Positions 21,420-57,796 of a stretch of DNA of 64,000 bases are shown here, piece after piece (positions within the stretch are counted from its first letter, which is position 1; the number at the start of each line of letters is the position of its first letter). The stretch comes from a bacterium (GTDB taxonomy: Bacteria; Electryoneota; Electryoneia; Electryoneales; Electryoneaceae): assembly GCA_963675295.2 (NCBI GenBank), contig CAXXKJ010000002.1, positions 4,128,001-4,192,000 of the forward strand. Direction: 5' to 3'. The notes below the pieces were generated by a model. That model saw only the letters and a list, made by a program, of their open reading frames with translations. It ran no database searches and had not been told where the DNA came from. A program made the translations under genes and the position numbers.

Positions 21420-21433
21420 TTCCGGGGAGAACG

Positions 21434-36869: not shown

Positions 36870-37835
36870 ATGGTGCTCACCCGTCATCCCGACAATCCGA
36901 TCATCACCCGTGAATCGATAACCTCCACCCTGCCTGAGCTGGACGATGTCAGCTCGGTGTTCAACCCCGGCGCGGTGCTGGTCGACGGCAAGGTGCACCT
37001 GCTGCTGCGGGTGCAGAACCGTGGTCGCGAAACGTACCTGCTGCACGCGGTCAGTGATGATGGCGTCCAGTTCGACATTGACCCGGAACCGGTGGTGTTC
37101 AAAGGCATCGAGGAGATTGCCTCACCGGTGTATCACATCTACGACCCACGCATCACCGAATTGGACGGCCGCTACTACATCATGCTCGCGCTGGACATCC
37201 ACAACGGCTGCCGGCTCGGGCTGGCAGTGACCGATGATTTCCGTGAGTACGAATTCCTCGGCATCAAATCGCACATCGACAACCGGAACGGTGTCCTTTT
37301 CCCGGAACGGATCAACGGGCAGGTGTTCCGGCTTGACCGTCCCAACCACCCGACGGCGGACGGTCCCGCCTCCGGCGAGATGATCTGGCTGGTCTCCAGC
37401 CGTGACTTTACCCGCTGGATTCCGCACAGCCCGGTGCTGCAGGGACGTCCTCACTACTGGGACGAGCGTATCGGCTCGGGCCCGCCGCCGGTGAAGACCC
37501 GTGACGGCTGGCTGTTGATTTATCACGGCGTCGCGACCCATTTCTCCAGGTCGAACATTTATCAGGCCGGCGTGGCGTTGCTGGATCTGGAGGATCCGTG
37601 CAAACTGATCGGACGCACCCGCTACAATATCCTTGAACCGCGTGAGATGTACGAGCTGATCGGCCAGGTGCCGAATGTCGTTTTCCCCAGCGGGATGGTG
37701 GTCTGGGACACGGATGATGACGGGTACGCCCTGCCGGACAGCCGGGTGTCGATCTACTACGGCGCGGCGGACACGGTGGTGGGCCTCGCCGAAACGACGA
37801 TTGGCGAGCTGGTAAACGCCTGCAATGAAGCATAG
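36870..37835 (+). CDS. GH130 beta-mannoside phosphorylase/hydrolase
   Basis: SVFNPGAV, YDPRIT, NRNGVLFPE, IGSGPPP, WLLIYHGV, GQVPNVVFPSG, YYGAADT; no signal peptide. Confidence 0.9.
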   Translation: MVLTRHPDNPIITRESITSTLPELDDVSSVFNPGAVLVDGKVHLLLRVQNRGRETYLLHAVSDDGVQFDIDPEPVVFKGIEEIASPVYHIYDPRITELDGRYYIMLALDIHNGCRLGLAVTDDFREYEFLGIKSHIDNRNGVLFPERINGQVFRLDRPNHPTADGPASGEMIWLVSSRDFTRWIPHSPVLQGRPHYWDERIGSGPPPVKTRDGWLLIYHGVATHFSRSNIYQAGVALLDLEDPCKLIGRTRYNILEPREMYELIGQVPNVVFPSGMVVWDTDDDGYALPDSRVSIYYGAADTVVGLAETTIGELVNACNEA

Positions 37836-37932
37836 CCCGGATCGGGTTGCTACCCTCTGCCCCGTAGCTTGCCCGTTTTGGCTCTGACAACGCGGCCTGA
37901 TGGATACGGACACCTTTGGAGAGGTTACTGAA

Positions 37933-39165
37933 ATGAAGCGAGATCTCACGGTTTCATGTACCCTGCTTCTGTTCTCCCTTCTCTTCGTGTGCAACGCATC
38001 CGCCGAGTTTCCCGTCCCGCAAATCCCGTTCGAATTCCGCACTGCAACCGCCCCATCCGTGATCGATTCGCTCACCATTGACGGCCGTGGCGACGAACAG
38101 ACATGGCAGACCATCGCCTGGTCTGAGCCGTTTGTTGATATCCGTGGCTTCGACTACCAGCCCGCCCCGCGCTATGAGACCCGGATCAAGATGGCGTGCG
38201 ATGAGGACTACTTCTACGTGCTGGCGTGGCTGGAAGAACCGCATCTCTGGGCGACCTACGACCGGCACGACATGGTCATCTTCCACGAGAACGATTTCGA
38301 GGTGTTCATCGACCCGGACGGCGACCTGCACAATTACCTCGAACTCGAGATCAACGCGCTGGGGACAACGTGGGACCTGATGCTCACTCGTCCGTACCGT
38401 GACGCCGGCAAGGCTATCGACTCGTGGGAGATTCCCGGCCTGAAGTCCGCGATCCATCTCGACGGCACGTTGAACGATCCCACCGACACCGACACGGGCT
38501 GGGGCGTGGAGCTGGCGATTCCGTGGGAGGTAATCACCGAAGTCGACACCCGGGAACGGGGTCCTCACCAGACACATTCTCCGACCATGCACGTCAACTT
38601 CAGCCGCGTGCAGTGGCAGCTCGACATCGTAGACGGACAGTATGTCAAACGCTCCAATCCAGATACCGGCGAACCGTTACCCGAAGACAACTGGGTGTGG
38701 TCGGCGCAGGGCCTGATCGCGATGCATTACCCGGAACGGTGGGGTCTGGTCACCATGCGTGGCGGGCATCGCCGGGCCAGCCCACCGGATATGGGTGAGC
38801 AGGCTGTTACCAGCATCGAAGATCCGCTCGCCGATCCGAGGTTACAGGGGAAGACACCAGGCGTGCAGACTGATCCCCTGCGCGAGATGGCGATGCTTTG
38901 CTACTACGCGCAGAAGCGGTATTACGAAGCGAACCAGCGAGTTTACGCGAGTAAGATCGTGTCGCTGGACCTGCCGGACGAATCGCCATATCCAACCATC
39001 GAATGGCCGCCGGATCTGGTCTGGATGCGTGGCGGGTACCAGATGATTGTGTACGATGCAGAGCGCCGCAGCGGCCTGCGGATCCGTGAGGATGGCCGTC
39101 TTGAGATGATGCCGTATCATTCGACCGACTACCTGAAACCATCCCAGGGAGCGCCAACACGATGA
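37933..39165 (+). CDS. Exported CBM9-like carbohydrate-binding protein
   Basis: Signal peptide; IDGRGDE..W, NDFEVFIDPDG, YLELEINALGT.WDL, W.VELAIPW, DNWVWS.QG.I.MH.PERWG. Confidence 0.8.
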   Translation: MKRDLTVSCTLLLFSLLFVCNASAEFPVPQIPFEFRTATAPSVIDSLTIDGRGDEQTWQTIAWSEPFVDIRGFDYQPAPRYETRIKMACDEDYFYVLAWLEEPHLWATYDRHDMVIFHENDFEVFIDPDGDLHNYLELEINALGTTWDLMLTRPYRDAGKAIDSWEIPGLKSAIHLDGTLNDPTDTDTGWGVELAIPWEVITEVDTRERGPHQTHSPTMHVNFSRVQWQLDIVDGQYVKRSNPDTGEPLPEDNWVWSAQGLIAMHYPERWGLVTMRGGHRRASPPDMGEQAVTSIEDPLADPRLQGKTPGVQTDPLREMAMLCYYAQKRYYEANQRVYASKIVSLDLPDESPYPTIEWPPDLVWMRGGYQMIVYDAERRSGLRIREDGRLEMMPYHSTDYLKPSQGAPTR

Positions 39166-39190
39166 CCGCGACGAGCAACGGCGGCGGACG

Positions 39191-41224
39191 ATGAACCTTT
39201 CCCCTCTCGACTGGACAATTTTCGCGGGGATGCTGCTGTTCCTGATCCTCAGCATTGTCGCCAGCCGCACGTTGATGAAATCGGTCGCGGATTTTCTCGC
39301 GGCCGGACGTTCGGCGGGACGCTACCTGCTGGCGGTATCGTCCGGGATCGCGATGCTCGGCGCGATCACCATCGTCGGCAACCTCGAGATGAACCTGCTC
39401 GCCGGGTTTTCGATGACCTGGTGGGGAATGACGACGAATGTCGTGCTGCTGATCATGATGGTGTTCGGCTGGGTGACCTACCGCTTCCGTCAGACTCGCG
39501 CGCTGACCATCGCCCACTTCTTCGAACTGAGATACAGCCGTGCGTTTCGTGTCTACGCCGGCATCCTTGCGGCGGTCAGTGGACTGATCAACTTCGGCAT
39601 CTTCCCGTCGGTCGGGACACGGTTTTTCATGTACTTTTGCGGTCTGCCGGACGCTTTCCCGTTGTTCGGCCTGATGATTCCAACCTTCCCGGTGATCATG
39701 GCCGGATTGCTGTCGATCTCGTTGTACTTCGTCTTCGCCGGCGGCCAGATCGCGGTGATCATCACCGATTTCCTGCAGGGTGTGTTCATCAATGTCGTCT
39801 TTGTCGCGATGATCCTCTACCTGCTGGCGATTGTCGACTGGGGCTCGATCCAGCAGGCGTTGCAGGGCGCGCCGGAAAATGCGTCTCTGATCAACCCGTT
39901 CAAGACCGGTCACATCGAGGATTTCAACTTCTGGTATTTCCTGATCGGCATCTTCGGAGTGTTCTATGGGGCGATGAGCTGGCAGGGCACGCAGGGCTAC
40001 AACGCGTCCGCCCGGAACGCTCATGAAGCCAAGATGGCGGGCATGCTCAGCGCGTGGCGTGGCCTGCCGCAAACGTTGATGCTGATGATTGTCCCGATCA
40101 TCGCGTACACGGTGCTTCATCATGCCGATTACGCCGGGATCGCGGAGAGTGTCAACGCGGTCATCGGCGGCATCGAGGGCGACGCAATCCAGAGCCAGTT
40201 GAAGGTGCCGCTGGTGCTGAGCCACCTGCTGCCGGTGGGCCTGATGGGGGCGTTCGCGGCGGTGATGCTGGCGGCATTCATCAGCACGCACGACTCCTAC
40301 CTGCATTCGTGGGGCAGCATCATCGTGCAGGATGTAATCATGCCGTTCCGGAAAGAACCGTTCACACCGGAACAACACATCAAGGTCTTGCGCTGGACGA
40401 TCATCGGTGTCGCGGTATTTATCTTCTTCTTCAGCCTGTTGTTCAAGCAGAGCCAGTACATCTTCCTCTTCTTCGCGATCACCGGCGCGATCTTCGCCGG
40501 TGGGTCCGGTGCGGTGATCATCGGCGGGTTGTACTGGAGTCGCGGCACTACGGCGGCGGCGTGGGCGGCGATGACCATCGGGTCCGGTATCGCGGTCGCC
40601 GGAATCATCATCCATCAGCTGGTGGACGATTTCCCGATCAACGGGCAGATGTTCTGGGCAATCAGCATGGGGGCGGCGTCGGTGCTGTACGTGGTCGTCT
40701 CGCTGCTGACCAGCCGTGGCCGGAAACACAACATGGACAAGCTGCTGCACCGTGGCGAGTACGATGAGAAGGGTGAACTGCAGCATGTCGACATCGGCCA
40801 GAAAAAAATCTGGAAGTTGCTCGGCATGACCGAGGAATTCACCACCGGCGACAAGCTCATCTTCGTCATGAACTACGCGTGGACCTTCCTCTGGTTCGGC
40901 GCGTTCGTGGTCGGCACGGTCTACAACCTGTCGCACGACGTCAGCGACGAATCGTGGATGACGTTCTGGAAAATCTACGTGTACGTGCAGCTGGCGATGG
41001 CGTTGGTCGCGATGGTGTGGTTCACCATCGGCGGCGCGTTTGATCTGAAAAAGATGGTCCACGCGTTGCGCACGATGGTCCGGGACGATTCCGACAGCGG
41101 GTTTGTCGCGCGTGAGCTGGATGTTGCCGCCACCGAACTACCGCCGATCGCGAAACCTTCCCCGGTGAGCCCTACGCGCCCGCTGGCCGAACCTCCAAGT
41201 GATGAGACGAACGATGCCCGATAA
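39191..41224 (+). CDS. Sodium:solute symporter family protein
   Basis: DFLAAGRSAGRYLL, FFELRYS, GGQIAVIITDFLQG, AAFIST.DSY, GGLYWSRGT; many TM helices. Confidence 0.9.
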   Translation: MNLSPLDWTIFAGMLLFLILSIVASRTLMKSVADFLAAGRSAGRYLLAVSSGIAMLGAITIVGNLEMNLLAGFSMTWWGMTTNVVLLIMMVFGWVTYRFRQTRALTIAHFFELRYSRAFRVYAGILAAVSGLINFGIFPSVGTRFFMYFCGLPDAFPLFGLMIPTFPVIMAGLLSISLYFVFAGGQIAVIITDFLQGVFINVVFVAMILYLLAIVDWGSIQQALQGAPENASLINPFKTGHIEDFNFWYFLIGIFGVFYGAMSWQGTQGYNASARNAHEAKMAGMLSAWRGLPQTLMLMIVPIIAYTVLHHADYAGIAESVNAVIGGIEGDAIQSQLKVPLVLSHLLPVGLMGAFAAVMLAAFISTHDSYLHSWGSIIVQDVIMPFRKEPFTPEQHIKVLRWTIIGVAVFIFFFSLLFKQSQYIFLFFAITGAIFAGGSGAVIIGGLYWSRGTTAAAWAAMTIGSGIAVAGIIIHQLVDDFPINGQMFWAISMGAASVLYVVVSLLTSRGRKHNMDKLLHRGEYDEKGELQHVDIGQKKIWKLLGMTEEFTTGDKLIFVMNYAWTFLWFGAFVVGTVYNLSHDVSDESWMTFWKIYVYVQLAMALVAMVWFTIGGAFDLKKMVHALRTMVRDDSDSGFVARELDVAATELPPIAKPSPVSPTRPLAEPPSDETNDAR

Positions 41225-44200
41225 ATTCCAGCAGTTGCACGTCACCCGGATCGAACGCTTCCGGGACCGGATCGGCAAGCTGATCATTCGCGACACACGC
41301 GAACTGACCGTCGATTGCGCGTTGACGGATGAAGAGCTGCCGTTCGAGAAACGCACCTCGCTCGACTACAAACCGTTGCGTGAGGGCGGCTCCTGGGGCA
41401 GCGAATACCAGATGGCGTGGCTGCACTTGAGCGGTACTGTTCCCTCGGAGTGGGCGGGCAAGACGGTTGTCGCCCAGCTGGATATCGGCGGCGAGGGGCT
41501 GGTCTATGACGACGCGGGCAAGATGCTGCAGAGCGTCAGCAGCGGGTCCATTTTCGATAAGGATTACGCCCGCGATATCGTGCTGCTGTTTGACGAAGCT
41601 CCCGATGGCGAAACGGTCGAGCTCTGGATTGACGCCTCCGCCAATGACCTGTTTGGCTTGATTACCGAGATGGACCCATCCGCGGAATCGCCGAAACGCT
41701 ACGGCGAGTGGAAAGCGGAGCTGAAACACGCCCGTCTCGCGTTGTTCGATACTGATCTCTGGCACCTGTGGATGGATTTGCGGATTGTGCTCGGCCTGAT
41801 CCGCACCTTGCCCGAGGATGGTGTCCGCCGTGCCCGGCTGATCCGTTGCGGCAGCGAGGCGGTGGATGTCTTCACCGAGAACCCGGCCAATGCATCCCTC
41901 TCTCGCGAAGTACTGGCACGCGAACTGAGCAAACCGGCCGCGGCGTCGGATTTGAACGCCGTCGCGATCGGACACGCGCACCTCGACACCGCGTGGCTGT
42001 GGCCGGTACGTGAGGGCAAACGCAAAGCCGAACGCACCTTCGCCAGCCAGTGCGACCTGATCGAACGCTATCCGGGCTATGTATTTGGCGCGTCTCAGCC
42101 GCATCAGTACGAGTATGTCCGTGACCGCAAGCCTGAATTGTGGGAACGGATCAAATGGCATGTGAACAACGGTGGCTGGGAACCGCTCGGCGGGATGTAC
42201 ACCGAGGCCGACTGCAACCTCGCGTCCGGGGAAGCGTTGGCGCGGCAACTGCTTTACGGCAAGCGCTTCTTCCTCGATGAGTTCGGTGTCGATGTCAGGC
42301 ACCTGTGGCTGCCGGACGTGTTCGGTTACTCCGCCGCGCTGCCGCAGTTGCTGAAGAAGGCCGGGATCGACTACTTCATCACGATCAAGATCTCGTGGAA
42401 CCAGTTCAACAAGTTCCCGCACCACACGTTTGTCTGGCGTGGCATCGACGGCAGCGAGGTACTCGCTCATTTCCCGCCCGAGGGCAACTACAACAGCATG
42501 CTGGACGCAGATTATCTAGTACCAGGCCGGGATGCATTCACCGAAAAAGACCGTGTCGATGTGTTCCTCAGCAGCTTCGGCGTCGGGGACGGCGGCGGCG
42601 GCCCGTTACCGGAAACCATCGAGTACGGCAAACGGCTGGCGAACACCGAGGGCGCGCCACGGGTGCGTTTTGGCCGCGTGGCGGACTTCTTCGACGAACT
42701 GGAAAGCTACCGTGACCAGCTCGACCGTTGGTCCGGAGAGCTGTACCTCGAGCTGCACCGCGGCACGTTGACCACGCAGGCGAAGGTCAAGCGCAGCAAC
42801 CGTAAGCTGGAATACCTGCTACAGGCGACGGAAATGCTGCACGCGTTTCTGCCGTTGGATGAGTACCCGGCGACTGAGCTGACGGCGGCGTGGAAAACAC
42901 TACTTATCAACCAGTTCCACGACATCCTGCCGGGGTCGAGTGTCACTGAAACGTATCGTGTCACGCTGGCGGAATATGACCGCATTGCACAAACCTGCGC
43001 CGAGCTGGAACAGGCAGCCGTAGAGAAGCTCGGCACGGCGGATGACAATGCCATCACCCTGTTCAATCCGCTCAGCAACGCGTTTTACGGCGATGTCGCA
43101 CTCCCGGATTCCTGTCCACGGAAGCAGCTGTTCAACCGGCAGGGTGATCCGTTACCGACGCAGCTCATCGGCGACCAGACCTGGATTTCGCTGGAACTCA
43201 AGCCGTCCTCGTTGGACACCATTCACAGCTCGGATCTGGAGATTCAACCCTCCGACCCGGTGGAGGGACGGATTCTCGAGAACGACCGGATCCGTTTCGA
43301 GTTCGACAAAGCCGGCCATCTGATCCACGCCATTGACGCGGACAGCGGCTGGGACGCCATCCCGGAAGGCGAACCCGGCAACCGCTTCCTGCTCTTCGCC
43401 GACCGTCCCAATGACTGGGACGCGTGGGACGTTGACCTGTTCTATGAGACCAACCTGCTTGGCGAAGCGGAGTGTGTTGGATATGAATCGCTGGGAGTGG
43501 GGTCGGTCGGGTCGGCGTTACGGTTCACATTCAAGAGGAACAAGTCGACGATCGTGCAGGATGTGATTCTCACGTGGTATTCCAACGAACTCCGCTTCAT
43601 TACGCGCGTTGACTGGCACGAAGATCACACGATGCTGCGTGTCAACTTCCCGGTCAATGTGCAGACGGACCGTGCCGCGTTCGACATTCAATACGGCCAC
43701 GTATTTCGTCCGACCCATCGTAACACGAGCTGGGATAAGGCCCGTTTCGAGAGCGCGGCGCACCGGTATGTCGATCTGTCCGAGCAGGATCGTGGCGTCG
43801 CGTTGCTCAACGATTGCAAGTACGGGCATGGTGTTCACGACAATGTCATCAGCCTCAATCTGCTGCGCTCGCCGACTTATCCTGACCCGGACGCCGACCG
43901 TGGGCAGCACGAATTCACCTTCTCACTGTACCCGCACGAGGGCGATCTGGTGCGTTCGGATGTCATCGAGCGTGCGGCAGCACTCAACCAGCCGCCGCTG
44001 GCCTGGCCGGGGATCAGGGTTGAATCGAAGGCGCTACCGTGTACGTTGACCGGTGATGGCTTGGCCCTGACCACAATCAAGCGCGGCGAGGACGGGGACG
44101 CGTGGATTGTACGGGTGGTGGAAACTCGCGGACGGCGTAGCAGCGGCACACTGCAGTGCGAGCTGCCCGGTGCGGAAATCGTTGAGTGTGATCTGATCGA

Positions 44201-44294
44201 GCGGCCGTTCGGTGATGAGGCGTCCGGTTCGATCGAGTTCGAGATGGGACCGTTCGAGATCCGGACCTTTGCGGTCCGAGTGAACCAAGTCTGA
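41214..44294 (+). CDS. Cytoplasmic GH38 alpha-mannosidase (MAN2C1/Ams1-like)
   Basis: GHAHLDTAWLWP, WLPDVFGYS, GVGDGGGGP, GELYLELHRGT, NQFHDILPGSS, LLNDCKYG; no signal peptide. Confidence 0.93.
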   Translation: MPDKFQQLHVTRIERFRDRIGKLIIRDTRELTVDCALTDEELPFEKRTSLDYKPLREGGSWGSEYQMAWLHLSGTVPSEWAGKTVVAQLDIGGEGLVYDDAGKMLQSVSSGSIFDKDYARDIVLLFDEAPDGETVELWIDASANDLFGLITEMDPSAESPKRYGEWKAELKHARLALFDTDLWHLWMDLRIVLGLIRTLPEDGVRRARLIRCGSEAVDVFTENPANASLSREVLARELSKPAAASDLNAVAIGHAHLDTAWLWPVREGKRKAERTFASQCDLIERYPGYVFGASQPHQYEYVRDRKPELWERIKWHVNNGGWEPLGGMYTEADCNLASGEALARQLLYGKRFFLDEFGVDVRHLWLPDVFGYSAALPQLLKKAGIDYFITIKISWNQFNKFPHHTFVWRGIDGSEVLAHFPPEGNYNSMLDADYLVPGRDAFTEKDRVDVFLSSFGVGDGGGGPLPETIEYGKRLANTEGAPRVRFGRVADFFDELESYRDQLDRWSGELYLELHRGTLTTQAKVKRSNRKLEYLLQATEMLHAFLPLDEYPATELTAAWKTLLINQFHDILPGSSVTETYRVTLAEYDRIAQTCAELEQAAVEKLGTADDNAITLFNPLSNAFYGDVALPDSCPRKQLFNRQGDPLPTQLIGDQTWISLELKPSSLDTIHSSDLEIQPSDPVEGRILENDRIRFEFDKAGHLIHAIDADSGWDAIPEGEPGNRFLLFADRPNDWDAWDVDLFYETNLLGEAECVGYESLGVGSVGSALRFTFKRNKSTIVQDVILTWYSNELRFITRVDWHEDHTMLRVNFPVNVQTDRAAFDIQYGHVFRPTHRNTSWDKARFESAAHRYVDLSEQDRGVALLNDCKYGHGVHDNVISLNLLRSPTYPDPDADRGQHEFTFSLYPHEGDLVRSDVIERAAALNQPPLAWPGIRVESKALPCTLTGDGLALTTIKRGEDGDAWIVRVVETRGRRSSGTLQCELPGAEIVECDLIERPFGDEASGSIEFEMGPFEIRTFAVRVNQV

Positions 44295-44358
44295 GCGTAT
44301 GCCCCGACCGCAACAAAGCTGGGCGGGATCGGCCGTCGCTGGAAATCACCGGAGAATA

Positions 44359-44389
44359 ATCCCTGCTGGCAGAGCCATCAGGGGCACAT
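44359..44389 (+). repeat. 31-bp hairpin repeat, copy 2
   Basis: ATCCCTGCTGGCAGAGCCATCAGGGGCACAT. Confidence 0.85.
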
Positions 44390-44418
44390 GATCGAGGTCA
44401 TGTCAGGGAGGAGATGAG

Positions 44419-45441
44419 ATGCGCTTCAGTATTGGTTTGACGTTGACCTGGCTGCTGGTTTTGACGGCGATTCCGTTGCTCGCCGGGGAACTGGTTGAAT
44501 CGACCACCGTCCCGGTGTTCGATCATCAGGTGCTTCATTTCAACCCTGATTCGACGGATCTGTACGTCGACGCACCGGTCGTCGCGCTGGACAACGGACG
44601 CGAGGCGGTATGTCCGGTGACCCTGCCCGACTACAACAAATCCACCCGGATCCTCGCGCACCTGACCCTCGATCCGATTCCGAAGGACATGCTGACGGTC
44701 CATGATCGCTGGGACCGCGCGGGGAACGTCCGTCTCACCAACCTCGACGGTCCGGATGTCGAGATCGCGCGCTTCATGACCAGTTACGGCGGCCACACCG
44801 AGCACACCCTCGATGTCACCCACCTCGCGCCGTTGCTCACCGGCGAACGGGACCTGGTCGCATTTGTCGATACCTGGGTCAGTCCCGGTTGGCAGGTGAC
44901 GTTCGATCTCGAATTCATGCCGGACACGTCCGCCTACGCACCCGACTGGGTGTTGCCGGTTTACTACACCACCGGGATGAACGCGCAGGACAATCCGGAC
45001 GGTGTCGACATTCCGGTTACCATTCCGCCGGGATTGGCACGGGTCGCGTTGGTCTACATCTCGACCGGTCACTGCACGGATGGCCGTGACGAGGACGAAT
45101 TCTACGCCAAGCCGAATGTGATCTCGGTGGATGGCATGGTGGTTGAACGGTTACACCCGTGGCGGGATGATTGCCGTGAGTACCGTGACCACAATCCGTA
45201 CACGGCGAAATGGACCGACGGCACGTGGTCCTCCGACTACAGCCGCAGCGGGTGGTGCCCGGGTGTGGAAGTTGACCCGACGGTCATCGACCTCACCGGC
45301 AATCTGTCGCCCGGCGAGCACACGATGCATATCGAGGTCGAGAACATGCGGCCCATTGACGAGGAAGAGCATTTCGGTTACTGGCGCATCTCCGCGCACC
45401 TGATCGGCTGGAAGGAGTACCCGCTGCTGTGGATCAACTGA
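44419..45441 (+). CDS. Peptide-N-glycosidase F-like amidase, exported
   Basis: Signal peptide; DRWDRAG, EIARFMTSYG, STGH...DEF, SRSGWCPG match the PNGase F pattern. Confidence 0.85.
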   Translation: MRFSIGLTLTWLLVLTAIPLLAGELVESTTVPVFDHQVLHFNPDSTDLYVDAPVVALDNGREAVCPVTLPDYNKSTRILAHLTLDPIPKDMLTVHDRWDRAGNVRLTNLDGPDVEIARFMTSYGGHTEHTLDVTHLAPLLTGERDLVAFVDTWVSPGWQVTFDLEFMPDTSAYAPDWVLPVYYTTGMNAQDNPDGVDIPVTIPPGLARVALVYISTGHCTDGRDEDEFYAKPNVISVDGMVVERLHPWRDDCREYRDHNPYTAKWTDGTWSSDYSRSGWCPGVEVDPTVIDLTGNLSPGEHTMHIEVENMRPIDEEEHFGYWRISAHLIGWKEYPLLWIN

Positions 45442-46937: not shown

Positions 46938-47241
46938 ACCCGCTCGCCGGACCCTTCGGACGAACCGGGTCTAGCACAGACAAACCGTGGCCCCGCTCAA
47001 GAGAACGGGGGTACGTGCTTCACAAGCAAGACGCCAGCCGGTACCGCACCTCTACCACGCTTCGGTTTTAAACTGTCTCACCTGGCACGGCGGGCAGCAG
47101 GCCAGGATTCTTTGGCACAGTCTACTCCCCGAGCGAAGCTCTTGCGAATGGAATTAGGCAAGCCGAATCTTGTATCCAATGATAATCGAAAACTTACATT
47201 CCATTCTGAATTCCAACCTTCACCCGTGGAAGGAACGTGAG

Positions 47242-49863: not shown

Positions 49864-49874
49864 ACCGGAATCAG

Positions 49875-52874
49875 ATGCAGCCCCGGATCACGATCCGCCT
49901 GATGCTGGCGGTGTTGCTGGCGATTTTTGCGGGAACCGTTGCCTTCAGCGCGGACCCCGGCGACCATGAGATCAAGGACCGGGATGCGTTGAAACGTCTC
50001 GGCGCGGTGGTCGAGGATCGCGGGATCGGTCTGCTCGACAAGGGCGAGCTGGCCAACCTTATCACCAACATCGGGATCATCAGCGATTTCCATTTCGGCA
50101 CTCCGGCGCTGCACTGGCCGCGCAATGGAGAGGACGTGCAACACTACGGCTTCGGTGTCGGTCTGGTCGTGCTGGCGGACGGGCAGGTGGTCGCCTCGGT
50201 GCACGATCCCGATTCCCCGTTGCTCGATTACGGCTGGGAAGCCGAGCAGGGATCGCTCGGCGGCTTGTTCAACGATGTTCGTACGGACGACAACACGGCG
50301 GCCGACGAGGTGACGCCGTTCCTCGCGTTCTCCGACCGTCCGGCGACGTGGCCTGTGGTCGGCGGCGAACCCACCTGGCCCGGCCCGTTCCGGCGTGACC
50401 TCGCCAACCCCACTCAGGAGGTGGAAGGCGAATTCACCTCCGACCGTGACATTTACTCCGTCTTTCGTGACAAGCGAGATGTCGGCCTGCGAGTCGAACA
50501 GATCGCCTACTCGTACAGCCGCCCCTACGCGACTGACCTGATTTTCGTCCGCTACGTGCTGCACAACGACAGCGGCGCGGATTTGGATGAGGTCTACGCA
50601 GGTTTCTTCGCGGATCTCAAGGCGGATTTCTACGCCGACGACCGTATCGGCACGTGGTCGCTTGTCGATGGCGAGAAGTATCCGTCGTTCTTCTTCAAGC
50701 AGGACCTGAACGGCGTCCCGCAACGTGACGACTCATCCCTGTTCGAACAGTGGGTTGGACCGGTCGGCTGGATCGGCGCGGGGATTGTCGCGACGCCGGA
50801 CGACATGGGCGTGACCAGCTTCCACTACTACCACGACGACGAAAGTCCGGTCGAGGACGAAGATTTCAGCGCGATTCTGCGCAATGATCCGTCAGGCACG
50901 AACAACCCGGACTGGTATTTCCACGGCGACAATCCACAGTATGACGACGTCTCGGTGCAGGCCGAGGTGGACAAGGATGCGTTCCCCGGGTCGGAGATTA
51001 CGTTTACCTCAGGCGTGGGACCGTTCTCGCTTCCGGCGGGTGGCAGCGAGGAATTCGCGCTGGCATTCGTGATCGGCGCCGATTCAACGGAGCTGTACGA
51101 CAATGCCGCCACTGCCTACCAGATGGCGCGCGAGATGCACTACCAGGGGTCCGGCCCACCGGCGACTCCGACCCTGCGTGCGACACCGGGCGACGGCGAG
51201 GTTCTACTGAGCTGGGACAATGTCGCGGAAGGCAGCGTGGACGCATTCACCGGGCTGCGTGATTTCGAGGGCTACCGACTCTACAAGTCCACTGACGGCG
51301 GCCTGACCTGGGGCGATGTGGTCACCAACTGGTTCGGCGAACCATCCGGCTACGTGCCCATCTTCCAGTGCGATCTGGTCGACAGCTTCACCGGCCCGGA
51401 CCCTGCGTACGGTCCGGATTTCCCCAACGCGAATGTCTGGCTCGGCGACGACACCGGCCTCAAGCACAGCTACCTCGATACGGATGTCACCAACGGCGTC
51501 GAAACGTGGTACACGATCACCGCTTACGATCGTGGCTTGTACGATCCGGATGATCCTCTCGCCGCCGAACCGAGCTACGAAACCTCGTTCGGCAATTCCG
51601 CCAGCGACGCGAACACCGTTGCCGTCACTCCCGGCACCCGCGCCGGGGACTGGCGTGCGGGCACGGCGGGCGGGCTGATCGAACTGAACGGCGCGGTCAG
51701 TGACGGCTACATCGACATCGAAATTATCGACAGCGACGAGCTGACCGGCTACACCTACAACGTCACCTTCAATGATGTCGGCGACACGTTGTCCCTCGAG
51801 CCGGACACGGTTATCGTCGAGGAAACGTCACTGAATCTCGAGTGCCTGACTACCGGCACGAATGTGTTCACCGACATGCACAGCGGTAAGGAATTCGTCT
51901 ACTTCAACGTGCCACTGAGCATGGCACAGCCGGCGGTGGACGGTTTCCGTCTTATTGTGCAGGATGTGGACGGGACCGGCGTGCGGGACCTGGGTTGGAC
52001 CACGGTGAACGACGAAGAGAGCACCTTTACCTGGTGGACGGCGAACAACTACCCGTCGAATCCGTCCAGTTACGAGGAAGTGGTCGCGGGGGCGATGGAC
52101 TGGCGTGTCAGCATCACCGACTCACCTGTCGAATTTCGGACGACAACTCTTGGGTTTACCGAACAATTCCATGACACTTCGTTCGCAGCACCGCTTAAAC
52201 TGGAAGTGTCCGACAATGCTGCGGATGGTGTGTGGACCGATGTAACCGACTACGGCGCGTTTTCCGATCTCGTGTTTGCGTTCGGGCCGATTCCATCGCT
52301 GAGTCCGGTTGGTTGGGATCTCGAGCCGGGCGGGGCAGCGTGGAACCCGTCCACCCCACCGGACGGCACCCCGTTGTTCCCGGACATTCTGTGGTTGCGT
52401 GACGATGACGACGACACGTCCGGTGCGGAGGTGTGGCTGAAGACGAACAACGGGCCGCCGGATGCAATTCCGCCGAGCGTTGGCGACGTCTTCACGATTA
52501 TCACGTACAAGCCGTTCCGGCGGGGCCTGGTCTATGAATTCACCACCGAGGCTCCCTCCACGTCCGCAACTGTCGATCTCGGCGCGATTCGTGTGGTTCC
52601 GAACCCGTATATCGTGGATAGCGCCATGCGTGGCTCGGATGGCGAGGGGCAGGTGATGTTCACCAACCTGCCTTCCCGTTGCGACATCACGATTTACACC
52701 GTTGCCGGGCGCAAGGTGGCGGAGCTGACGCATGACAGCAGCGGCACGGAAGGATTTGCGTACTGGGATTTGCGCAACGAACACGGCCAGGACATTGCGT
52801 ACGGGGTGTACGTGTATGTCGTATCCACCCCGGACGGTGACAAGCATACAGGAAAATTGATGGTGATCCGGTAG
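49875..52874 (+). CDS. Large (~1000 aa) acidic secreted protein with an Fn3-like module and a variant T9SS-like CTD
   Basis: Signal peptide; PPATPTL...V.LSWD...DFEGYRLYKS; CTD IRVVPNPY...FTNLP...IYTVAG...WDLRN...GVYVYVV...GKLMVIR. Confidence 0.8.
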   Translation: MQPRITIRLMLAVLLAIFAGTVAFSADPGDHEIKDRDALKRLGAVVEDRGIGLLDKGELANLITNIGIISDFHFGTPALHWPRNGEDVQHYGFGVGLVVLADGQVVASVHDPDSPLLDYGWEAEQGSLGGLFNDVRTDDNTAADEVTPFLAFSDRPATWPVVGGEPTWPGPFRRDLANPTQEVEGEFTSDRDIYSVFRDKRDVGLRVEQIAYSYSRPYATDLIFVRYVLHNDSGADLDEVYAGFFADLKADFYADDRIGTWSLVDGEKYPSFFFKQDLNGVPQRDDSSLFEQWVGPVGWIGAGIVATPDDMGVTSFHYYHDDESPVEDEDFSAILRNDPSGTNNPDWYFHGDNPQYDDVSVQAEVDKDAFPGSEITFTSGVGPFSLPAGGSEEFALAFVIGADSTELYDNAATAYQMAREMHYQGSGPPATPTLRATPGDGEVLLSWDNVAEGSVDAFTGLRDFEGYRLYKSTDGGLTWGDVVTNWFGEPSGYVPIFQCDLVDSFTGPDPAYGPDFPNANVWLGDDTGLKHSYLDTDVTNGVETWYTITAYDRGLYDPDDPLAAEPSYETSFGNSASDANTVAVTPGTRAGDWRAGTAGGLIELNGAVSDGYIDIEIIDSDELTGYTYNVTFNDVGDTLSLEPDTVIVEETSLNLECLTTGTNVFTDMHSGKEFVYFNVPLSMAQPAVDGFRLIVQDVDGTGVRDLGWTTVNDEESTFTWWTANNYPSNPSSYEEVVAGAMDWRVSITDSPVEFRTTTLGFTEQFHDTSFAAPLKLEVSDNAADGVWTDVTDYGAFSDLVFAFGPIPSLSPVGWDLEPGGAAWNPSTPPDGTPLFPDILWLRDDDDDTSGAEVWLKTNNGPPDAIPPSVGDVFTIITYKPFRRGLVYEFTTEAPSTSATVDLGAIRVVPNPYIVDSAMRGSDGEGQVMFTNLPSRCDITIYTVAGRKVAELTHDSSGTEGFAYWDLRNEHGQDIAYGVYVYVVSTPDGDKHTGKLMVIR

Positions 52875-52975
52875 TTGAGTGGAGCGAACATCGAGGGACA
52901 CGATCCGCTTCACCATCGCAACATTTTCTACAGGATCAACAGCCCCGGAGGGGGGCGCATAACGAGGAGAATCGC

Positions 52976-53959
52976 ATGCGTATTGCTCTGACTTTCTTCC
53001 TGCTGGTACTGGTCTCCGGGATCAGTTCGGCGGATGTAATTTTCGAGGAACACTTCACCGACGGCAGCATCCAGGACGGCTGGTTCTCTCCGTGGCCGGA
53101 AGGCCAGGATATTGTGATCACTCCGGACCCGACCGCGCCGAGCGGCGATGGTTGGACCGGCAGTGTCGCCGGCGACCAGGCTTCCACCGCGCTCAACGGC
53201 ACCATGGACCTGGAAGATTACACGGTTGAATCCTGGATCTACACGATTGTCTCGAACGACGTCATGTTCCCGGTTTATAACGCCGTCGCGGCGCGTTGGG
53301 ACACGACCAACGGCAATTCGTACTACTATTTTACCACCATGTTCGGCTCGACCAAGAAAATGCGGCTGCGTCGCTATCCGGGCTCCGGCTTTGCCGCGGA
53401 AACCTTCATTGAATGGTCTGCCGCGGAGATTCCCGGCGGCGCCCCGACTGAGAGCAGCTGGCACAAGATGACGCTGCGTGTTTCCGGCGACGAGATCTGG
53501 TGCTACTGGGATGATCAATTGATGCCCGGCTGCCCGTACACCCCGTCAGCGGAATTCCGCCAGTACTCCGGGTTCTTCGGCATCTACGAGTTCTACATGG
53601 GCGACCAGGTTACCGAACCGGAAACGCGGTTTGACGATTTCATGGTCACCGATGAAAACAACGACGTCGACGAGATCACGATCGCACCGGTACCGAACTC
53701 ATCCATCGTCAGCTCGCTGTACCCGAACCCGTTCAACGCCAGCACCACGGTCACCTTCACCAATTCGGTTCCGGGTGATGTGACGCTGGCGGTGTGGGAC
53801 GTGCTCGGTCGACAGATGGCGACCCTTCAGCACGGGTTCCTCTCCCCCGGCGATTTCCGGGTGACGTGGGACGCGGCCGGCTATTCGACCGGCAACTACT
53901 TCATTACCGTGCAGCTCGGCGACAAGCAGGTGGTGCATCGCGCCGTGCTGACCAAGTAG
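52976..53959 (+). CDS. Secreted beta-sandwich (ConA/lectin-like) protein with a T9SS type-A CTD
   Basis: Signal peptide; WHKMTLRVSGDEIWCYWD, G.FGIY, RFDDFMV; CTD LYPNPFN...VWDVLGRQ...GNYFI. Confidence 0.7.
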   Translation: MRIALTFFLLVLVSGISSADVIFEEHFTDGSIQDGWFSPWPEGQDIVITPDPTAPSGDGWTGSVAGDQASTALNGTMDLEDYTVESWIYTIVSNDVMFPVYNAVAARWDTTNGNSYYYFTTMFGSTKKMRLRRYPGSGFAAETFIEWSAAEIPGGAPTESSWHKMTLRVSGDEIWCYWDDQLMPGCPYTPSAEFRQYSGFFGIYEFYMGDQVTEPETRFDDFMVTDENNDVDEITIAPVPNSSIVSSLYPNPFNASTTVTFTNSVPGDVTLAVWDVLGRQMATLQHGFLSPGDFRVTWDAAGYSTGNYFITVQLGDKQVVHRAVLTK

Positions 53960-54105
53960 CGCTTACTCAGGTTGTGACCAACTTTCGGGATCAGGCGAGG
54001 CGAGTCGTTTCGCCTGATTCCGGCGGTGTTGATCATGCGGGCGTGCGGAAGGTTGGTGGTTAGCACCGTCGCACACCCGCAGCAGCCCACAATGCGAGGT
54101 CTCGC

Positions 54106-56772
54106 ATGAGTCGTTGGAAACCGAATCACGGATGGGCGATCGCCAGCGTTCTGCTGGCGTTGTTGCTGCTTCCGGCAACGTTATTCGCCGCACCGGAGAT
54201 CGTGGTGCCGGGCAGCGTCGTCTTTCAGCTGTCGTACGCTGACGCCCTGCCGCAGGACGCGTCCGAGGGTGCCCTGTTGCGCACAGGTGACGCCGCGTTT
54301 GACGAGTGGTTGGGCACGATTGACGCCAGCAGCATGAAGAACGAATTCGGCGACCTGATGCCGGACATGCGTGTCGTGCGGTATGACGCAGACCGGCCGG
54401 GCGGGCAGATTCTGGACGAGCTGCGGGATTTCCCGTTTGTCGTGCAGGCGGACGCCAACTACGCATTCCCGTGGTCTGAGCTCACGCGAACCCCGTCTGA
54501 CCCGGAAGCGCCGGGCCAGTGGCACCATTACGCGATCAATTCGTATCGCGGCTGGGCGTTGGCGCAGGGGTCGGACGATATCATCATCGGCATCGTTGAC
54601 AGCGGTGTCGACTATGACCATCCCGATCTCGAGAGCAGCATCTGGGTTAATCCCGGTGAGGATCTGAACAACGACGGTATCTGGGACGCTTCCGACGTTG
54701 ACGGTCTCGACAACGACGACAACGGCTACATCGACGACGGCATCGGCTGGGATTTTGTCACCGAGACCGAAGTCTTTCCCGGTGACGATCCGGGTCCGCC
54801 AGACAACGATCCCAACGATTTCGACGGACACGGCACCCACTGTTCCGGCGATGCTGCCGCGACCACGAACAACGGCATCGGTGTTGCCGCTCCCGGTTGG
54901 GGCTGCAAGATCGGCGCGTTGCGGGCGGGCTGGACGACGACAGGCGGCCTCGGGGTTGTCGGTCTGCTTGAGGCGACCAATGCCATCACCTATGCCATGA
55001 ACCACGGTTTCGATGTCATCTCGATGAGCTTTGGTGGACCGGGCGGCGATCCGTTCTACTTCCAGCAGGCGATGCAGATGGCGTATGACGCTGGCCTGAT
55101 CCTCGTCGCGGCAGCTGGCAATGAAAGCTCGAATGTGCCGCAGTATCCCGCCGCCGAGGACATGGTGATCGCCGTCGCCGCGACCGACCAGAACGATGAG
55201 CTGGCCGATTTCTCCAGCTGGGGCGACTGGGTCACCTTGGCCGCGCCCGGTGTCGCGATTTACAGTACCACGAATGCGGGCGGCTACGGCCAGCAGGGCG
55301 GTACCAGCATGGCGTGCCCGATTGTTGCCGGTTCCATCGCCAACCTGATGAGCATCGCGCCGCCGGGCTGGACTAACGACGACATCATCTTCCGGCTCAC
55401 CTCCACTGCGCGTGAAATTCCGGTTCCGGGCACCGGCGCCGGTATTGTCGACCTCGGCGCATTGCTTGACGTGTACGTCTCGGTCGACTCGGTCTGGGTG
55501 TACGATGGCGTCGTGCCGCACATCATTCACGGGCAGGAAGGCACCTTCGGCATGCGCTGGCAGAAGCATGACCAGAGCGCGCAGGAAGTGTCGCTGAAGC
55601 TGACCTGCGACGAACCCCGGGTCACGCTTGGTGCTGATTCGCTGTGGATCGGGATCGTGACACAGGGCCAGTCTGGAAACTTCGAGGTGCCGGTAACTGT
55701 CGCGCCCGGTGACGAGGATGTCGAGACGATTGACGTCGTCGCCCGCTTCCGTGGCTCGGATTTCTTCAACAACGATTTCGACTTCGAGCAGATCATCCCG
55801 CTACGTGTCGGCCAGGCACCGGTGCTGCTGATCGACGATGACCAGGGCGGCGCGGGCCGTATTGACACGTGGTATCTCAGTGCGATGGAGCAGGTCGGGG
55901 TGGAAACCGAAGCGATCAAACGGTCGGATATCTCGGTGCTGGCCGATTTTGTCGCGGGCTACGAGGCAATCATTTACGCGTCCGGCAGCCGCACCAGCAA
56001 CCATCTCACCGGGGATGACCTGGCCGTCTTCAGCGACTACCTGAACGACGGCGGCAAGATGCTGTTCTCCGGACAGAACATCGCTGAAGATCTGGCGGCG
56101 ACCAACCCGGACGTGCTCGACACCCTGTTCCACATCGAGCTGACTGAGCCCAACGCGAACCAGCTTGTGGTGCGTGGCATCGAAGGCCATCCGATCACCG
56201 ATGGCTTCTACCTCTTCCTCGCCGGTGAGGGGGGCGCGTGGAACCAGGACAACATCGACGTGCTCGCCGCTCAGGACGGCGCGGAACCGTTGTTCGTATT
56301 CAGCGCGGACCAGCCTGAGCGGTTGGCGGGTGTGCGAGTACAGGAAGGAATGCGCGACCTGGTTTTCTGCTCGTTCGGTCTGGAAGCAATCAACGATGAC
56401 TGGGTGAACGCGTCCACCCGTGCCGAGGTGCTCGACCGGATCTTCGTCGCCTGGGGCTTTGAGACTGGTGTCGCCGAACCGGGCAGGGACGGGTCAGGGC
56501 TGATCGCGGATGAGTTCGCCGTCTCCCGCCTGTGGCCGAATCCGACGAACGGGTTCGTGCAAAGTGTGATCACGTTGCCGTCACCGGGTCAGGTACGAAT
56601 CCGTGTGTTTGACCTGCTCGGACGGGAAGTGGATGCGTACGACTTCGCCGGTTCCGCCGGTCATAACCGTTTTTCTTGGCAGATGCCGGCGGGATTGAGT
56701 TCGGGGATGTATTTCCTCCGAGCCGAGCATCAGGCGGATGCACGGCAACAGCGTTTCCTGTATGTCAAGTGA
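54106..56772 (+). CDS. Secreted S8 subtilisin-like serine protease with a T9SS CTD
   Basis: Catalytic motifs IVDSGVD, GHGTHCSG, AAAGNE, GTSMACP; CTD LWPNPTN...VFDLLGREV...SSGMYFL. Confidence 0.93.
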   Translation: MSRWKPNHGWAIASVLLALLLLPATLFAAPEIVVPGSVVFQLSYADALPQDASEGALLRTGDAAFDEWLGTIDASSMKNEFGDLMPDMRVVRYDADRPGGQILDELRDFPFVVQADANYAFPWSELTRTPSDPEAPGQWHHYAINSYRGWALAQGSDDIIIGIVDSGVDYDHPDLESSIWVNPGEDLNNDGIWDASDVDGLDNDDNGYIDDGIGWDFVTETEVFPGDDPGPPDNDPNDFDGHGTHCSGDAAATTNNGIGVAAPGWGCKIGALRAGWTTTGGLGVVGLLEATNAITYAMNHGFDVISMSFGGPGGDPFYFQQAMQMAYDAGLILVAAAGNESSNVPQYPAAEDMVIAVAATDQNDELADFSSWGDWVTLAAPGVAIYSTTNAGGYGQQGGTSMACPIVAGSIANLMSIAPPGWTNDDIIFRLTSTAREIPVPGTGAGIVDLGALLDVYVSVDSVWVYDGVVPHIIHGQEGTFGMRWQKHDQSAQEVSLKLTCDEPRVTLGADSLWIGIVTQGQSGNFEVPVTVAPGDEDVETIDVVARFRGSDFFNNDFDFEQIIPLRVGQAPVLLIDDDQGGAGRIDTWYLSAMEQVGVETEAIKRSDISVLADFVAGYEAIIYASGSRTSNHLTGDDLAVFSDYLNDGGKMLFSGQNIAEDLAATNPDVLDTLFHIELTEPNANQLVVRGIEGHPITDGFYLFLAGEGGAWNQDNIDVLAAQDGAEPLFVFSADQPERLAGVRVQEGMRDLVFCSFGLEAINDDWVNASTRAEVLDRIFVAWGFETGVAEPGRDGSGLIADEFAVSRLWPNPTNGFVQSVITLPSPGQVRIRVFDLLGREVDAYDFAGSAGHNRFSWQMPAGLSSGMYFLRAEHQADARQQRFLYVK

Positions 56773-56782
56773 GGGAGGACGC

Positions 56783-57796
56783 ATGAACAGGTCGCTGCAA
56801 CGGGTAGGCTTGACGCTGCTGCTGGTGGCGGTGCTGCTGCCCGGACACGCTGCTGGGTTTGACAAGCCCGGCACCACCGCCGCCACTTTTCTGCAGATCA
56901 TTCCCGGCAGTCGTGTTCCGGCGATGGGTGGCGCGGGAGTCGCATTGGCCGGTGGCGCGGAAATGCTCGCGATCAACCCGGCCGCGATCGCCTCGGACCG
57001 GTTCTCGGCGTCGTTCGCTTACAACGACTGGTTCGCCGGGCTAGAGCATCAAACATTGGCCGTCACCGCTCCAGTCCGGCCCAATCTGCGCGTCGGGATT
57101 CACGCGATCTCGTTCGGCGGGGACGAATTCGAGCAGACGACGCTCGAGATGCAAAACGGGAACGGCGTCATGGTCGACTACGGCGATCTGGCGGTGGGTG
57201 CATCCGCGATCATGCAATTGACTGACCGTTTCACCGTCGGCATCACCGGGAAATACATCCGCCAGGACCTGTTCCATACCTCCGCGCAGACCGGCGCGCT
57301 TGACGTCGGCACGCTGCTGCACACCACGCTGGACGGTTTTTCCATCGGCATGGCGATGACCAACCTCGGCGGCGACATGCAGCTCACCGGGCAGGATCTG
57401 ATCGCCGACGCGGAGTCGGACAATGCCGCCGAAACCCGGCTGCACACGTCGAAATGGCCGTTGCCGCTGTCCTTCCAGTTCGGCTTCGGCTGGCGGCTGG
57501 TGGGCGAGCAGGACGCGTTCTGGCGGGACGATCTGCACGAGTTCACCCTCGCGGTCGACAGCCGGCATTTGAACGAAGGGATTACCACCGTGCACGCCGG
57601 CGCGGAATACGGGCTGTACGACATCGTCTTCCTGCGCGGCGGCCGCAGCCTGAACCACGACACCGAGGAGTGGTCGTTCGGCGGTGGCGTGCGGGTCAAC
57701 CTGCGCAGCCTGACCGTGAACGCCGACTTCGCCTACGCCGACATGGGCGACCTGAACTCAGTAAAGCGGGTGACGTTACGGATTTGCGGACGCTGA
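56783..57796 (+). CDS. PorV/PorQ-family outer-membrane beta-barrel
   Basis: Signal peptide; KPGTTAATFLQI.PGSR..AMGGA...NPA; GITGKYI, DVG, NLG, LP.SF, GAEY, DFAY. Confidence 0.85.
   Translation: MNRSLQRVGLTLLLVAVLLPGHAAGFDKPGTTAATFLQIIPGSRVPAMGGAGVALAGGAEMLAINPAAIASDRFSASFAYNDWFAGLEHQTLAVTAPVRPNLRVGIHAISFGGDEFEQTTLEMQNGNGVMVDYGDLAVGASAIMQLTDRFTVGITGKYIRQDLFHTSAQTGALDVGTLLHTTLDGFSIGMAMTNLGGDMQLTGQDLIADAESDNAAETRLHTSKWPLPLSFQFGFGWRLVGEQDAFWRDDLHEFTLAVDSRHLNEGITTVHAGAEYGLYDIVFLRGGRSLNHDTEEWSFGGGVRVNLRSLTVNADFAYADMGDLNSVKRVTLRICGR

Follow-up and report, generated by a model that had tools for sequence, protein, structure and literature searches.

A putative N-glycan salvage operon beside a repeated TonB-receptor cassette in a bacterium of the Electryoneaceae

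Eleven genes in a 64-kb stretch of an Electryoneaceae genome (GenBank assembly GCA_963675295.2, contig CAXXKJ010000002.1, positions 4,128,001 to 4,192,000, the whole of which we call the window) bring together glycoside hydrolases (GH families), a peptide-N-glycosidase (PNGase), a TonB-dependent receptor and proteins with type IX secretion system (T9SS) features, and the question that they raise is whether they form one system for foraging on glycoproteins or two neighbouring systems. A preliminary description of this DNA took the former view and regarded the locus as a single analogue of the polysaccharide utilization loci (PULs) of Bacteroides. The reading that we favour, and consider reasonably probable, is that two independently conserved modules stand side by side: Module A, an operon for the salvage of mannose-rich N-glycans, and Module B, one of seven uptake cassettes in this genome. 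A and B are separately conserved and separately inherited units, which adjoin in this species and in the one closest to it but in no other genome compared.

Gene content of the locus

The window has a G+C content of about 60 % and belongs to a genome of 4.8 Mb in two contigs (C1 and C2) with a completeness of 92.8 %. All 11 open reading frames (ORFs) are on the + strand and, each read at its longest, span positions 36807-57796; position 36870 is the ATG of the first gene (GH130) and 57796 the stop of the last (PorV-like). Gene families were assigned by Pfam and NCBIfam profile searches of the window ORFs, and these, together with the ORF map, bear out every family and coordinate that had been named for the 11 co-oriented genes. 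The best outside relatives of the locus genes are found in metagenome-assembled genomes (MAGs) labelled Zixibacteria, GN15, Ca. Electryonea clarkiae (Ca. Electryoneota, of the Fibrobacterota-Chlorobiota-Bacteroidota or FCB group), KSB1 and Calditrichia. Module A (36870-46937) has six genes:

36870..37835, + strand: GH130 protein of beta-mannoside phosphorylase type, no signal peptide (PF04041, 177 bits)
37933..39165, + strand: exported CBM9-like protein with signal peptide (PF06452, CBM9_1, 31.8 bits; cut-off, 23.4)
39191..41224, + strand: inner-membrane transporter of the sodium:solute symporter (SSS) family, 677 aa (PF00474, SSF, 72 bits)
41199..44294, + strand: GH38 alpha-mannosidase of Ams1/MAN2C1 (cytosolic) type, no signal peptide (four GH38 Pfam domains)
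44419..45441, + strand: PNGase F-type peptide-N-glycosidase, signal peptide present, T9SS C-terminal domain (CTD) absent (PF09112 and PF09113)
45429..46937, + strand: GH20 beta-N-acetylhexosaminidase, no signal peptide (PF00728, 378 bits)

Module B (47242-57796) has five genes, of which the receptor, the large protein that we name Big and the barrel have likely starts (47242, 49875 and 56783) internal to their longest ORFs, as read from their N-termini and sequences; Big is 1039 aa in its longest ORF and 999 aa from its likely start:

47242..49863, + strand: TonB-dependent receptor with N-terminal CarboxypepD_reg domain (Pfam CarboxypepD_reg, Plug and barrel)
49875..52874, + strand: Big, a 999-aa exported multi-domain beta-sandwich protein (no Pfam family; C-terminal match to PorZ)
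52976..53959, + strand: 327-aa secreted protein with type A CTD (TIGR04183, 33 bits against a cut-off of 23)
54106..56772, + strand: S8 subtilase with type A CTD (PF00082, 161.6 bits; TIGR04183, 34.2 bits against 23)
56783..57796, + strand: outer-membrane barrel of the PorV/PorQ family (NF033709, 155.7 bits against a cut-off of 90)

None of these 11 genes encodes a SusD-like protein or a member of GH18 or GH92, as the preliminary description had stated, and family searches of the whole genome, which is 92.8 % complete, found no GH18, GH92 or GH125 either. For SusD itself the whole genome was searched with PF07980, the one SusD-like Pfam model applied, and gave no match, the control in B. thetaiotaomicron being positive; the lack of SusD, which had been put forward as a trait of the locus, therefore characterizes the genome as a whole. 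With the SusC-family model TIGR04056 the receptor reaches 90.4 bits where the cut-off is 368, so that it has a SusC-like architecture but falls outside the family by score; a SusD gene beside a SusC-family receptor, which is what the strict definition of a PUL asks for, is not present at the locus.

Conservation and linkage of the two modules

As a unit Module A is conserved: related genomes of the family share its gene order, and so does one MAG of the Zixibacteria. Strong orthologues of the PNGase (E <= 1e-100) were found in 10 of 40 related genomes, and up to 20 kb around each was examined; a GH20-anchored scan of species genomes, in which 80 loci were kept of 597 confirmed, supplied two more PNGase loci (L001 and L003), giving a total of 12, and synteny was read by tblastn of all window proteins against them. 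All six Module A genes are present in the window order in three of the 12 (genomes G001 and G008, and the Zixibacteria MAG, L001), and the order CBM9-SSS-GH38-PNGase-GH20 is kept in G002, G009 and G011. Shorter versions are SSS-GH38-PNGase-GH20 at a contig end in G003, with the SSS gene cut, SSS-GH38-PNGase in G012, PNGase-GH20 only in G021, G031 and L003, and the PNGase alone in G025. The most conserved link is that of PNGase and GH20, which adjoin in 10 of the 12 loci; SSS, GH38 and PNGase adjoin in eight, and the CBM9-like gene is next to the SSS gene in five of the seven relatives' loci in which DNA 5' of the latter could be read. A GH38 orthologue occurs in seven of the 10 PNGase-bearing relatives and adjoins the PNGase gene every time. 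We note that two of these orthologues (G003:C26:661-3732 and G009:C226:17266-20340) each contain one in-frame TAA, perhaps because the gene is split or has become a pseudogene, or perhaps through a sequencing error.

Module B does not travel with this block. When profiles of the receptor, Big and the PorV-like barrel were run over the 12 PNGase loci, a receptor was found within the examined flanks of one only, that of G001, which is the closest relative (about 90 % amino-acid identity, and 88-96 % across the locus). The congener G002 has the five-gene unit of receptor, Big, 327-aa protein, S8 protease and barrel intact at 67-72 % identity on contig C12, where it has nap nitrate-reductase genes on one side and an integrase-like fragment on the other, and its block of carbohydrate-active enzyme (CAZyme) genes is on contig C21. 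Orthologues of the receptor-Big pair (52-58 % identity) follow recO in G008, G011 and G012, with no CAZyme or S8 gene adjoining, and in G008, which is a single contig, the pair is about 1 Mb away from the CAZyme block. Conversely, G008, G009, G011 and the Zixibacteria MAG keep Module A with no receptor close to it. The phyletic patterns of PNGase and Big overlap only in part, since a Big orthologue occurs in six of the 10 PNGase genomes but not in the other four, and the PNGase is missing from six of the 12 genomes with a Big orthologue (at least 54 % identity).

Module B as a repeated cassette

Paralogues of the receptor, Big and the barrel, located by tblastn of the window proteins against the genome, are grouped at six other sites, and a profile built from the genome finds exactly seven proteins with the Big middle domain, each of them in a cassette that runs from a receptor to a PorV-like gene. 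The same triad recurs among 76 loci that were recovered from metagenomes with an alignment of 63 Big sequences as the seed: of the 46 loci that extend far enough, 45 have the receptor gene directly upstream of Big, and a PorV-like gene is directly downstream in 61 of 64, the exceptions to the arrangement being L183 (in the order receptor-barrel-Big), L178 (overlapping frames) and L169. The window cassette deviates from this norm by two genes inserted between Big and the barrel, those for the S8 protease and the 327-aa CTD protein, an insertion that is common to G001 and G002. Two results were set aside. The Big match beside the PNGase of G025 (L103) is an ordinary CTD protein of 595 aa with no receptor nearby and was rejected as a cassette, and a profile seeded with the last 135 residues of Big drifted on iteration into the general CTD family, lost its seeds and was rejected as a family definition. 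The recO-receptor-Big arrangement that stands without a barrel in three genera is unlike nearly all of the metagenome loci of this family.

All 120 listed homologues of Big are either unnamed or 'hypothetical'. An AlphaFold2 (AF2) model (pLDDT 87.6, pTM 0.79) is an all-beta, multi-domain chain for which a Foldseek search of solved structures gave no whole-chain analogue; parts of it match FN3 arrays, PorZ and, at a TMt of about 0.2, the beta-sandwiches with which GH94 and GH15 enzymes begin at the N-terminus, and we assign no function from these matches. A match to the C-terminal part of the PorZ model (35.7 bits) covers the last 110 or so residues, and the tail is unmatched by PF18962, TIGR04183 or a CTD profile built from the genome. 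Three proteins of the locus had been described as CTD-bearing, and for two of these, the 327-aa protein and the S8 protease, the type A CTD is confirmed; the tail of Big is not of the standard type A.

The subtilase has the motifs DSG165, HGT242 and GTSMA399 and is predicted, from these and its CTD, to be a T9SS-secreted protease. The N-terminal domain of the 327-aa protein is possibly a lectin-like jelly roll, a weak lead that comes from atlas feature matches to PF06439/Laminin_G_3 clusters at 0.88-0.89, under the 0.9 line for reliability. The barrel passes the NF033709 threshold and misses both equivalog cut-offs (PorV, 46.6 bits against 250; PorQ, 54.7 bits against 220), so that it belongs to the family without being either of these two proteins.

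What might such a cassette take up? The neighbours of the other six copies include a GH53 protein with a CTD, a CBM20 protein with a CTD next to a GH13 amylase, a CBM4_9 protein with a CTD that has GH130 genes and an ABC importer next to it, an InhA/MAM protease of M6-like type with a CTD, an alkaline phosphatase and a beta-helix protein. It is conceivable, though we think it unlikely, that Module B is a cassette for protein or peptide uptake or for surface display that has nothing to do with glycans and was placed beside Module A by rearrangement. The S8 protease is the sole enzyme of the module, one of the paralogous cassettes is flanked by the M6-like protease, and the pairs beside recO in G008, G011 and G012 have no CAZyme, just as the G002 unit lies beside nap genes and an integrase-like fragment. 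Against this, four of the six other cassettes are within a few genes of genes for carbohydrate-binding proteins or glycoside hydrolases, and since glycopeptides are also peptides, the uptake of peptides would be compatible with a coupling to Module A. The window copy is one of few cassettes with an attached protease, and because it adjoins a pathway whose substrate can be predicted, it is a convenient place to test import by cassettes of this kind.

Do the modules act as a single system?

In the preliminary description the 11 genes were one co-regulated PUL analogue, in which T9SS proteins including the S8 protease would clip glycoproteins at the surface, the receptor would import the glycopeptides, and the PNGase and glycosidases would finish the task inside the cell. 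We find this doubtful. As a single co-evolved unit it is not upheld by the comparison of genomes, in which the two blocks adjoin in one of 12 loci and are unlinked in G002 (where both are intact on separate contigs), G008, G011 and G012. By its own terms the view would fall if the CAZyme and receptor blocks were never found together in relatives, and it comes close to this: they occur together in G001, but nowhere else, and as this is the closest relative it does not count as an independent case. In addition, the DNA that follows the cassette (58000-62100) falls to 44-54 % G+C and contains DUF932 and PD-(D/E)XK nuclease genes with several small unannotated ORFs; it is possibly the remnant of a mobile element, and its low G+C content and mobile appearance suggest a recent rearrangement.

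Several observations nevertheless weigh against a division into two modules. The 11 genes are co-oriented and separated by short gaps, and as the 304-nt gap between the GH20 and receptor genes has no terminator-like hairpin, A and B may be co-transcribed; a promoter and terminator scan of positions 36000-55999, which has no hit in that gap, says little either way, as its counts do not exceed the means for shuffled sequence (3 against 5.0; 11 against 13.5). The PNGase is exported and has no T9SS tag, so that its substrate must be delivered across the outer membrane, and a protease with a receptor would be a sensible supplier, as is proposed for Bacteroides in the part of the report that deals with these enzymes (PMC9522356). 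The adjacency of A and B persists in two species (the source genome, G000, and G001), and Big occurs in six of the 10 PNGase-bearing relatives where about three would be expected by chance, although these genomes are kin, which confounds the comparison. A separate point concerns the barrel: a profile search detected no PorV-like gene adjoining the receptor-Big pairs of G008, G011 and G012 (L190, L191 and L192), which makes the case for a private barrel weaker in this orthogroup. Taking these points together with those above, we hold to two modules; their coupling in this genus is possible, if rather improbable, and would be recent and not an ancestral or conserved design.

Predicted activities of Module A

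The exported PNGase has both PNGase F domains above their cut-offs (PF09113, 111.2 bits against 25; PF09112, 43.5 bits against 22.4) and neither a CTD nor a lipobox cysteine, and its solved relatives are 3ks7, 4r4x and 1pnf. In an alignment to 1pnf, Asp60 corresponds to D99, Trp120 is kept as W153 and Glu118 is replaced by Asp151; the equivalent of Glu206 lies outside that alignment, and the window enzyme shares a DEF motif with 3ks7 and 4r4x. An aspartate at the position of Glu118 is reported for active group 1 PNGases of Bacteroides (Crouch et al., PMC9522356), and the sections of that paper on these enzymes describe type I signal peptides and suggest that they act in the periplasm on imported glycopeptides. 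From its own signal peptide we infer a periplasmic location for the window enzyme too.

The GH38 protein has the Pfam N, middle, C and C2 domains, all above their cut-offs, with the Ams1-like_1st domain slightly under (26.5 bits against 27), and its nearest solved relatives are Ams1 (7vqo; E 2.4e-154, residues 49-1001) and then the alpha-mannosidases 7ufr-7ufu. Ams1/MAN2C1 enzymes are cytosolic in eukaryotes, where they trim free N-glycans. GH20 has an HIGGDE motif at residue 295, an instance of the HxGGDE motif that we take to be the family signature, and is nearest to 6q63 (E 1.5e-116). For GH130 the nearest solved structures are TM1225 (E 5.6e-54) and Uhgb_MP (E 4.4e-45), both of which share identical YDPR, NRNG, RP and YHGV stretches with it in alignments, and the GH130 hydrolases 5a7v and 3taw are far weaker matches than these phosphorylases.

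The CBM9-like ORF opens at 37900 and its signal peptide begins at Met 37933. Its sequence has no significant match among solved structures and a fold search was therefore used, in which the first 250 or so residues of an AF2 model (pLDDT 79.5) matched the CBM9 structures 7nwn, 1i82 and 4jpq (Foldseek, TMt 0.65-0.69). The family is very large, with 6459 proteins at E <= 0.001 among 8000 scored; one relative, P0208 (700 aa), is fused to a PF16317 domain. The transporter next to it has many hydrophobic segments. Reading of the N-termini places signal peptides on the PNGase and the CBM9-like protein and none on GH130, GH38 and GH20, so that trimming by these glycosidases would be cytoplasmic. The contention that deglycosylation follows passage of the outer membrane thus gains support, the PNGase having a signal peptide without a CTD and the three glycosidases no signal peptide, and the idea of an N-glycan pathway in this set of enzymes is likewise supported.

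The locus has no sialidase, galactosidase or fucosidase gene, and its most economical reading is as a salvage route for mannose-rich N-glycans. The PNGase F-type amidase would release the glycan from glycopeptides in the periplasm, and the CBM9-like protein and the SSS transporter would carry the free glycan into the cytoplasm, where the GH38 enzyme would strip off the alpha-mannoses. The GH130 phosphorylase, of the beta-1,4-mannoside group, would then convert Man-beta-1,4-GlcNAc(-GlcNAc) to mannose-1-phosphate and chitobiose or N-acetylglucosamine (GlcNAc), and GH20 would cleave the chitobiose. In this species and its closest relative the glycopeptides may be delivered to Module A by Module B. 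By tblastn the whole genome has one PNGase and one GH20, and as family searches found no GH18, GH92 or GH125, this locus plus a second GH38 gene described below constitutes the only N-glycan route detected.

This assignment meets objections of its own. None of GH130, GH38, GH20 and PNGase reaches its NCBIfam equivalog cut-off, GH130 scoring 187.7 bits against 550; TM1225, the nearest solved GH130, is a beta-1,4-mannooligosaccharide phosphorylase whose substrate is mannan oligosaccharides and not N-glycan cores; and no GH130 was seen in the approximately 1.5 kb examined upstream of the block in G002 and G009. The SSS protein scores 93 bits with TIGR00813, under the cut-off of 184 bits, transporters of this family are usually assigned small solutes, and it is unproven that such a protein can take in a Man(n)GlcNAc2 oligosaccharide. 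These points about GH130 and the equivalogs would also suit a Module A directed not at eukaryotic N-glycans but at different beta-mannosides, for instance oligosaccharides from mannan or glycoconjugates of bacteria or archaea, with the PNGase-like protein serving as another amidase or in binding, but we consider this quite improbable given that the PNGase has both domains, the equivalents of Asp60 and Trp120 and the aspartate of the active group 1 Bacteroides enzymes (as described in the relevant part of PMC9522356), that PNGase-GH20 is the most strongly kept link, that GH38 is of the Ams1/MAN2C1 type, and that Pfam searches find no mannanase in the locus.

Surface attachment of Big and the secretion system

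The CTD of PorZ is retained and binds PorQ, and that of PorU stays bound to PorV, according to the portion of a T9SS review that treats these proteins (PMC10202324), which also suggests that cognate PorV-like barrels may shield such domains from cleavage. By analogy, Big is probably tethered at the surface to its own barrel through an uncleaved C-terminal domain, next to the receptor. That the genome encodes a T9SS is indicated by its profile matches, among them SprA (830 bits against 200) and PorU (708.7 bits against 420), the latter directly upstream of the best-scoring PorV-family gene, the canonical PorV, which adjoins it at C2:892737-897098; the GldM model had no match in the genome, but its positive control was silent as well. 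With a simple GC3-based caller, which gave 3838 genes, and profiles built from the genome's own sequences, about 402 of the 3838 called proteins have a T9SS CTD-like tail and 21 are strong members of the PorV/PorQ family. A cross-genome family search counts 20 of the latter, and the matches number 9-21 per genome across the 41 genomes searched, the source genome included. Three PorV/PorQ-family genes are in tandem at C2:3761269-3764995.

Flanking DNA

Some 10 kb upstream of Module A is a second set of genes with a possible bearing on mannose:

18889..26861, + strand: sugar ABC transporter and secreted 1360-aa GH38 protein (Pfam; signal-peptide-like N-terminus)

The transporter consists of a Peripla_BP_4 binding protein, a double ATPase and a permease, and the GH38 protein, which also has CHB_HEX_C, Fn3_assoc and PA14 domains, is the only other GH38 in the genome by tblastn. 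These genes possibly cooperate with Module A, in that the secreted GH38 may free mannose outside the cytoplasm for the ABC transporter. They are followed by an island of low G+C content (26858-31938; 41-49 % against about 60 %) that looks foreign and encodes a truncated DUF4372/DDE transposase together with a hybrid histidine kinase of 1158 aa with multiple PAS domains. This kinase has only 29 % identity to one beside GH20 in G021, and we have not treated the two as a shared regulator. Two more CTD proteins flank the region, a PQQ/BamB-like beta-propeller (15902-17446) and an FG-GAP repeat protein (62234-64000).

Comparison with known systems

N-glycan loci are known from Bacteroides with a PNGase (BF0811; B035DRAFT_03341 of B. 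massiliensis) and from the high-mannose PUL of B. thetaiotaomicron, with the GH18 enzyme BT3987 and GH92 enzymes (PMC9522356, PMC10154615), and what follows refers to the parts of those papers in which these loci are described. The likenesses are a PNGase that has a type I signal peptide and the aspartate of group 1 at the position of Glu118 and is believed to work on glycopeptides after their import, a core that is finished by GH130 or another beta-mannosidase with exo-mannosidases, and a TonB-dependent importer in the neighbourhood. Unlike those loci, the window has no SusC/SusD pair and no surface lipoproteins; it has a PNGase in place of GH18 and GH38 in place of GH92; trimming is predicted to be cytoplasmic here and periplasmic there; import across the inner membrane would be by the SSS transporter with its CBM9-like partner; and the phylum is a different one, the nearest named being Zixibacteria and Ca. 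Electryoneota.

In the Gram-positive systems of Bifidobacterium longum and Streptococcus the glycan is freed at the cell surface by GH18, GH20 or GH85 endo-enzymes and imported by ABC transporters, whereas the window would use a PNGase behind the outer membrane and SSS import. There is nonetheless a likeness to the GH38/GH125 operon of B. longum, as it appears in the corresponding part of PMC10154615, for there too the glycan enters the cell in free form and GH38-type mannosidases without signal peptides then trim it. The route of Uhgb_MP and BT1033 for the Man-beta-1,4-GlcNAc core, as set out in part of PMC8950772, resembles Module A in a GH130 without signal peptide beside a transporter and in the YDPR, NRNG and HG stretches that are shared with Uhgb_MP and TM1225; it differs in that the window GH130 misses the equivalog score and has TM1225 as the closer solved relative.

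For Module B the obvious comparison is with SusC/SusD (RagA/RagB), where a CarboxypepD_reg receptor is likewise followed by the gene for a large surface protein and many copies per genome lie beside substrate-specific enzymes. The partner here is an all-beta T9SS-type protein of about 1000 aa and not a helical SusD lipoprotein, there is a third gene for a PorV/PorQ-family barrel, and the receptor is at 90 bits where the SusC cut-off is 368. The sections of the T9SS review (PMC10202324) on PorZ-PorQ, PorU-PorV and type B CTD cargo with PorP/SprF barrels offer a second parallel, in a C-terminal domain that would be retained and held by a cognate barrel, with cargo and barrel genes clustered; the Module B pair differs from PorZ-PorQ and PorU-PorV in being joined to a TonB receptor, in being present sevenfold and in implying no role in secretion. 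TonB-dependent transporters without SusD are reportedly also a feature of the N-glycan cluster of Xanthomonas campestris, said to have been described by Dupoiron in 2015, which is proteobacterial, has GH92 and other enzymes and, by the same account, has no T9SS or PNGase. A search of the full-text literature, in which subscription journals were not covered, turned up no published account of either unit for these phyla. We thus see the locus as a putative N-glycan utilization locus with known enzyme chemistry but different wiring, beside a widespread receptor cassette that appears to be undescribed.

Implications

The main correction to the first reading of this DNA is that Modules A and B are not an ancestral single system. 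A bolder view, which we offer as speculation and rate as rather unlikely, is that SusC/SusD has its general counterpart, in the FCB phyla without SusD, in the triad of TonB receptor, T9SS-type surface protein of about 1000 aa and a PorV-like barrel private to it; that the window copy, with its S8 protease and lectin-like protein, is specialized for glycoproteins and feeds the periplasmic PNGase; and that the CBM9-like protein binds the reducing end while the SSS transporter imports whole oligosaccharides. If true, this would be a complete 'selfish' system for glycoprotein foraging, initiated by a PNGase and with parts unlike those of any described PUL. Foraging on N-glycans is understood mainly from gut Bacteroides and a few Gram-positive bacteria, and the locus points to a different wiring of it in uncultured, sediment-type FCB lineages. 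The Module B family is widespread and unstudied, and it may take the place of SusC/SusD outside the Bacteroidota.

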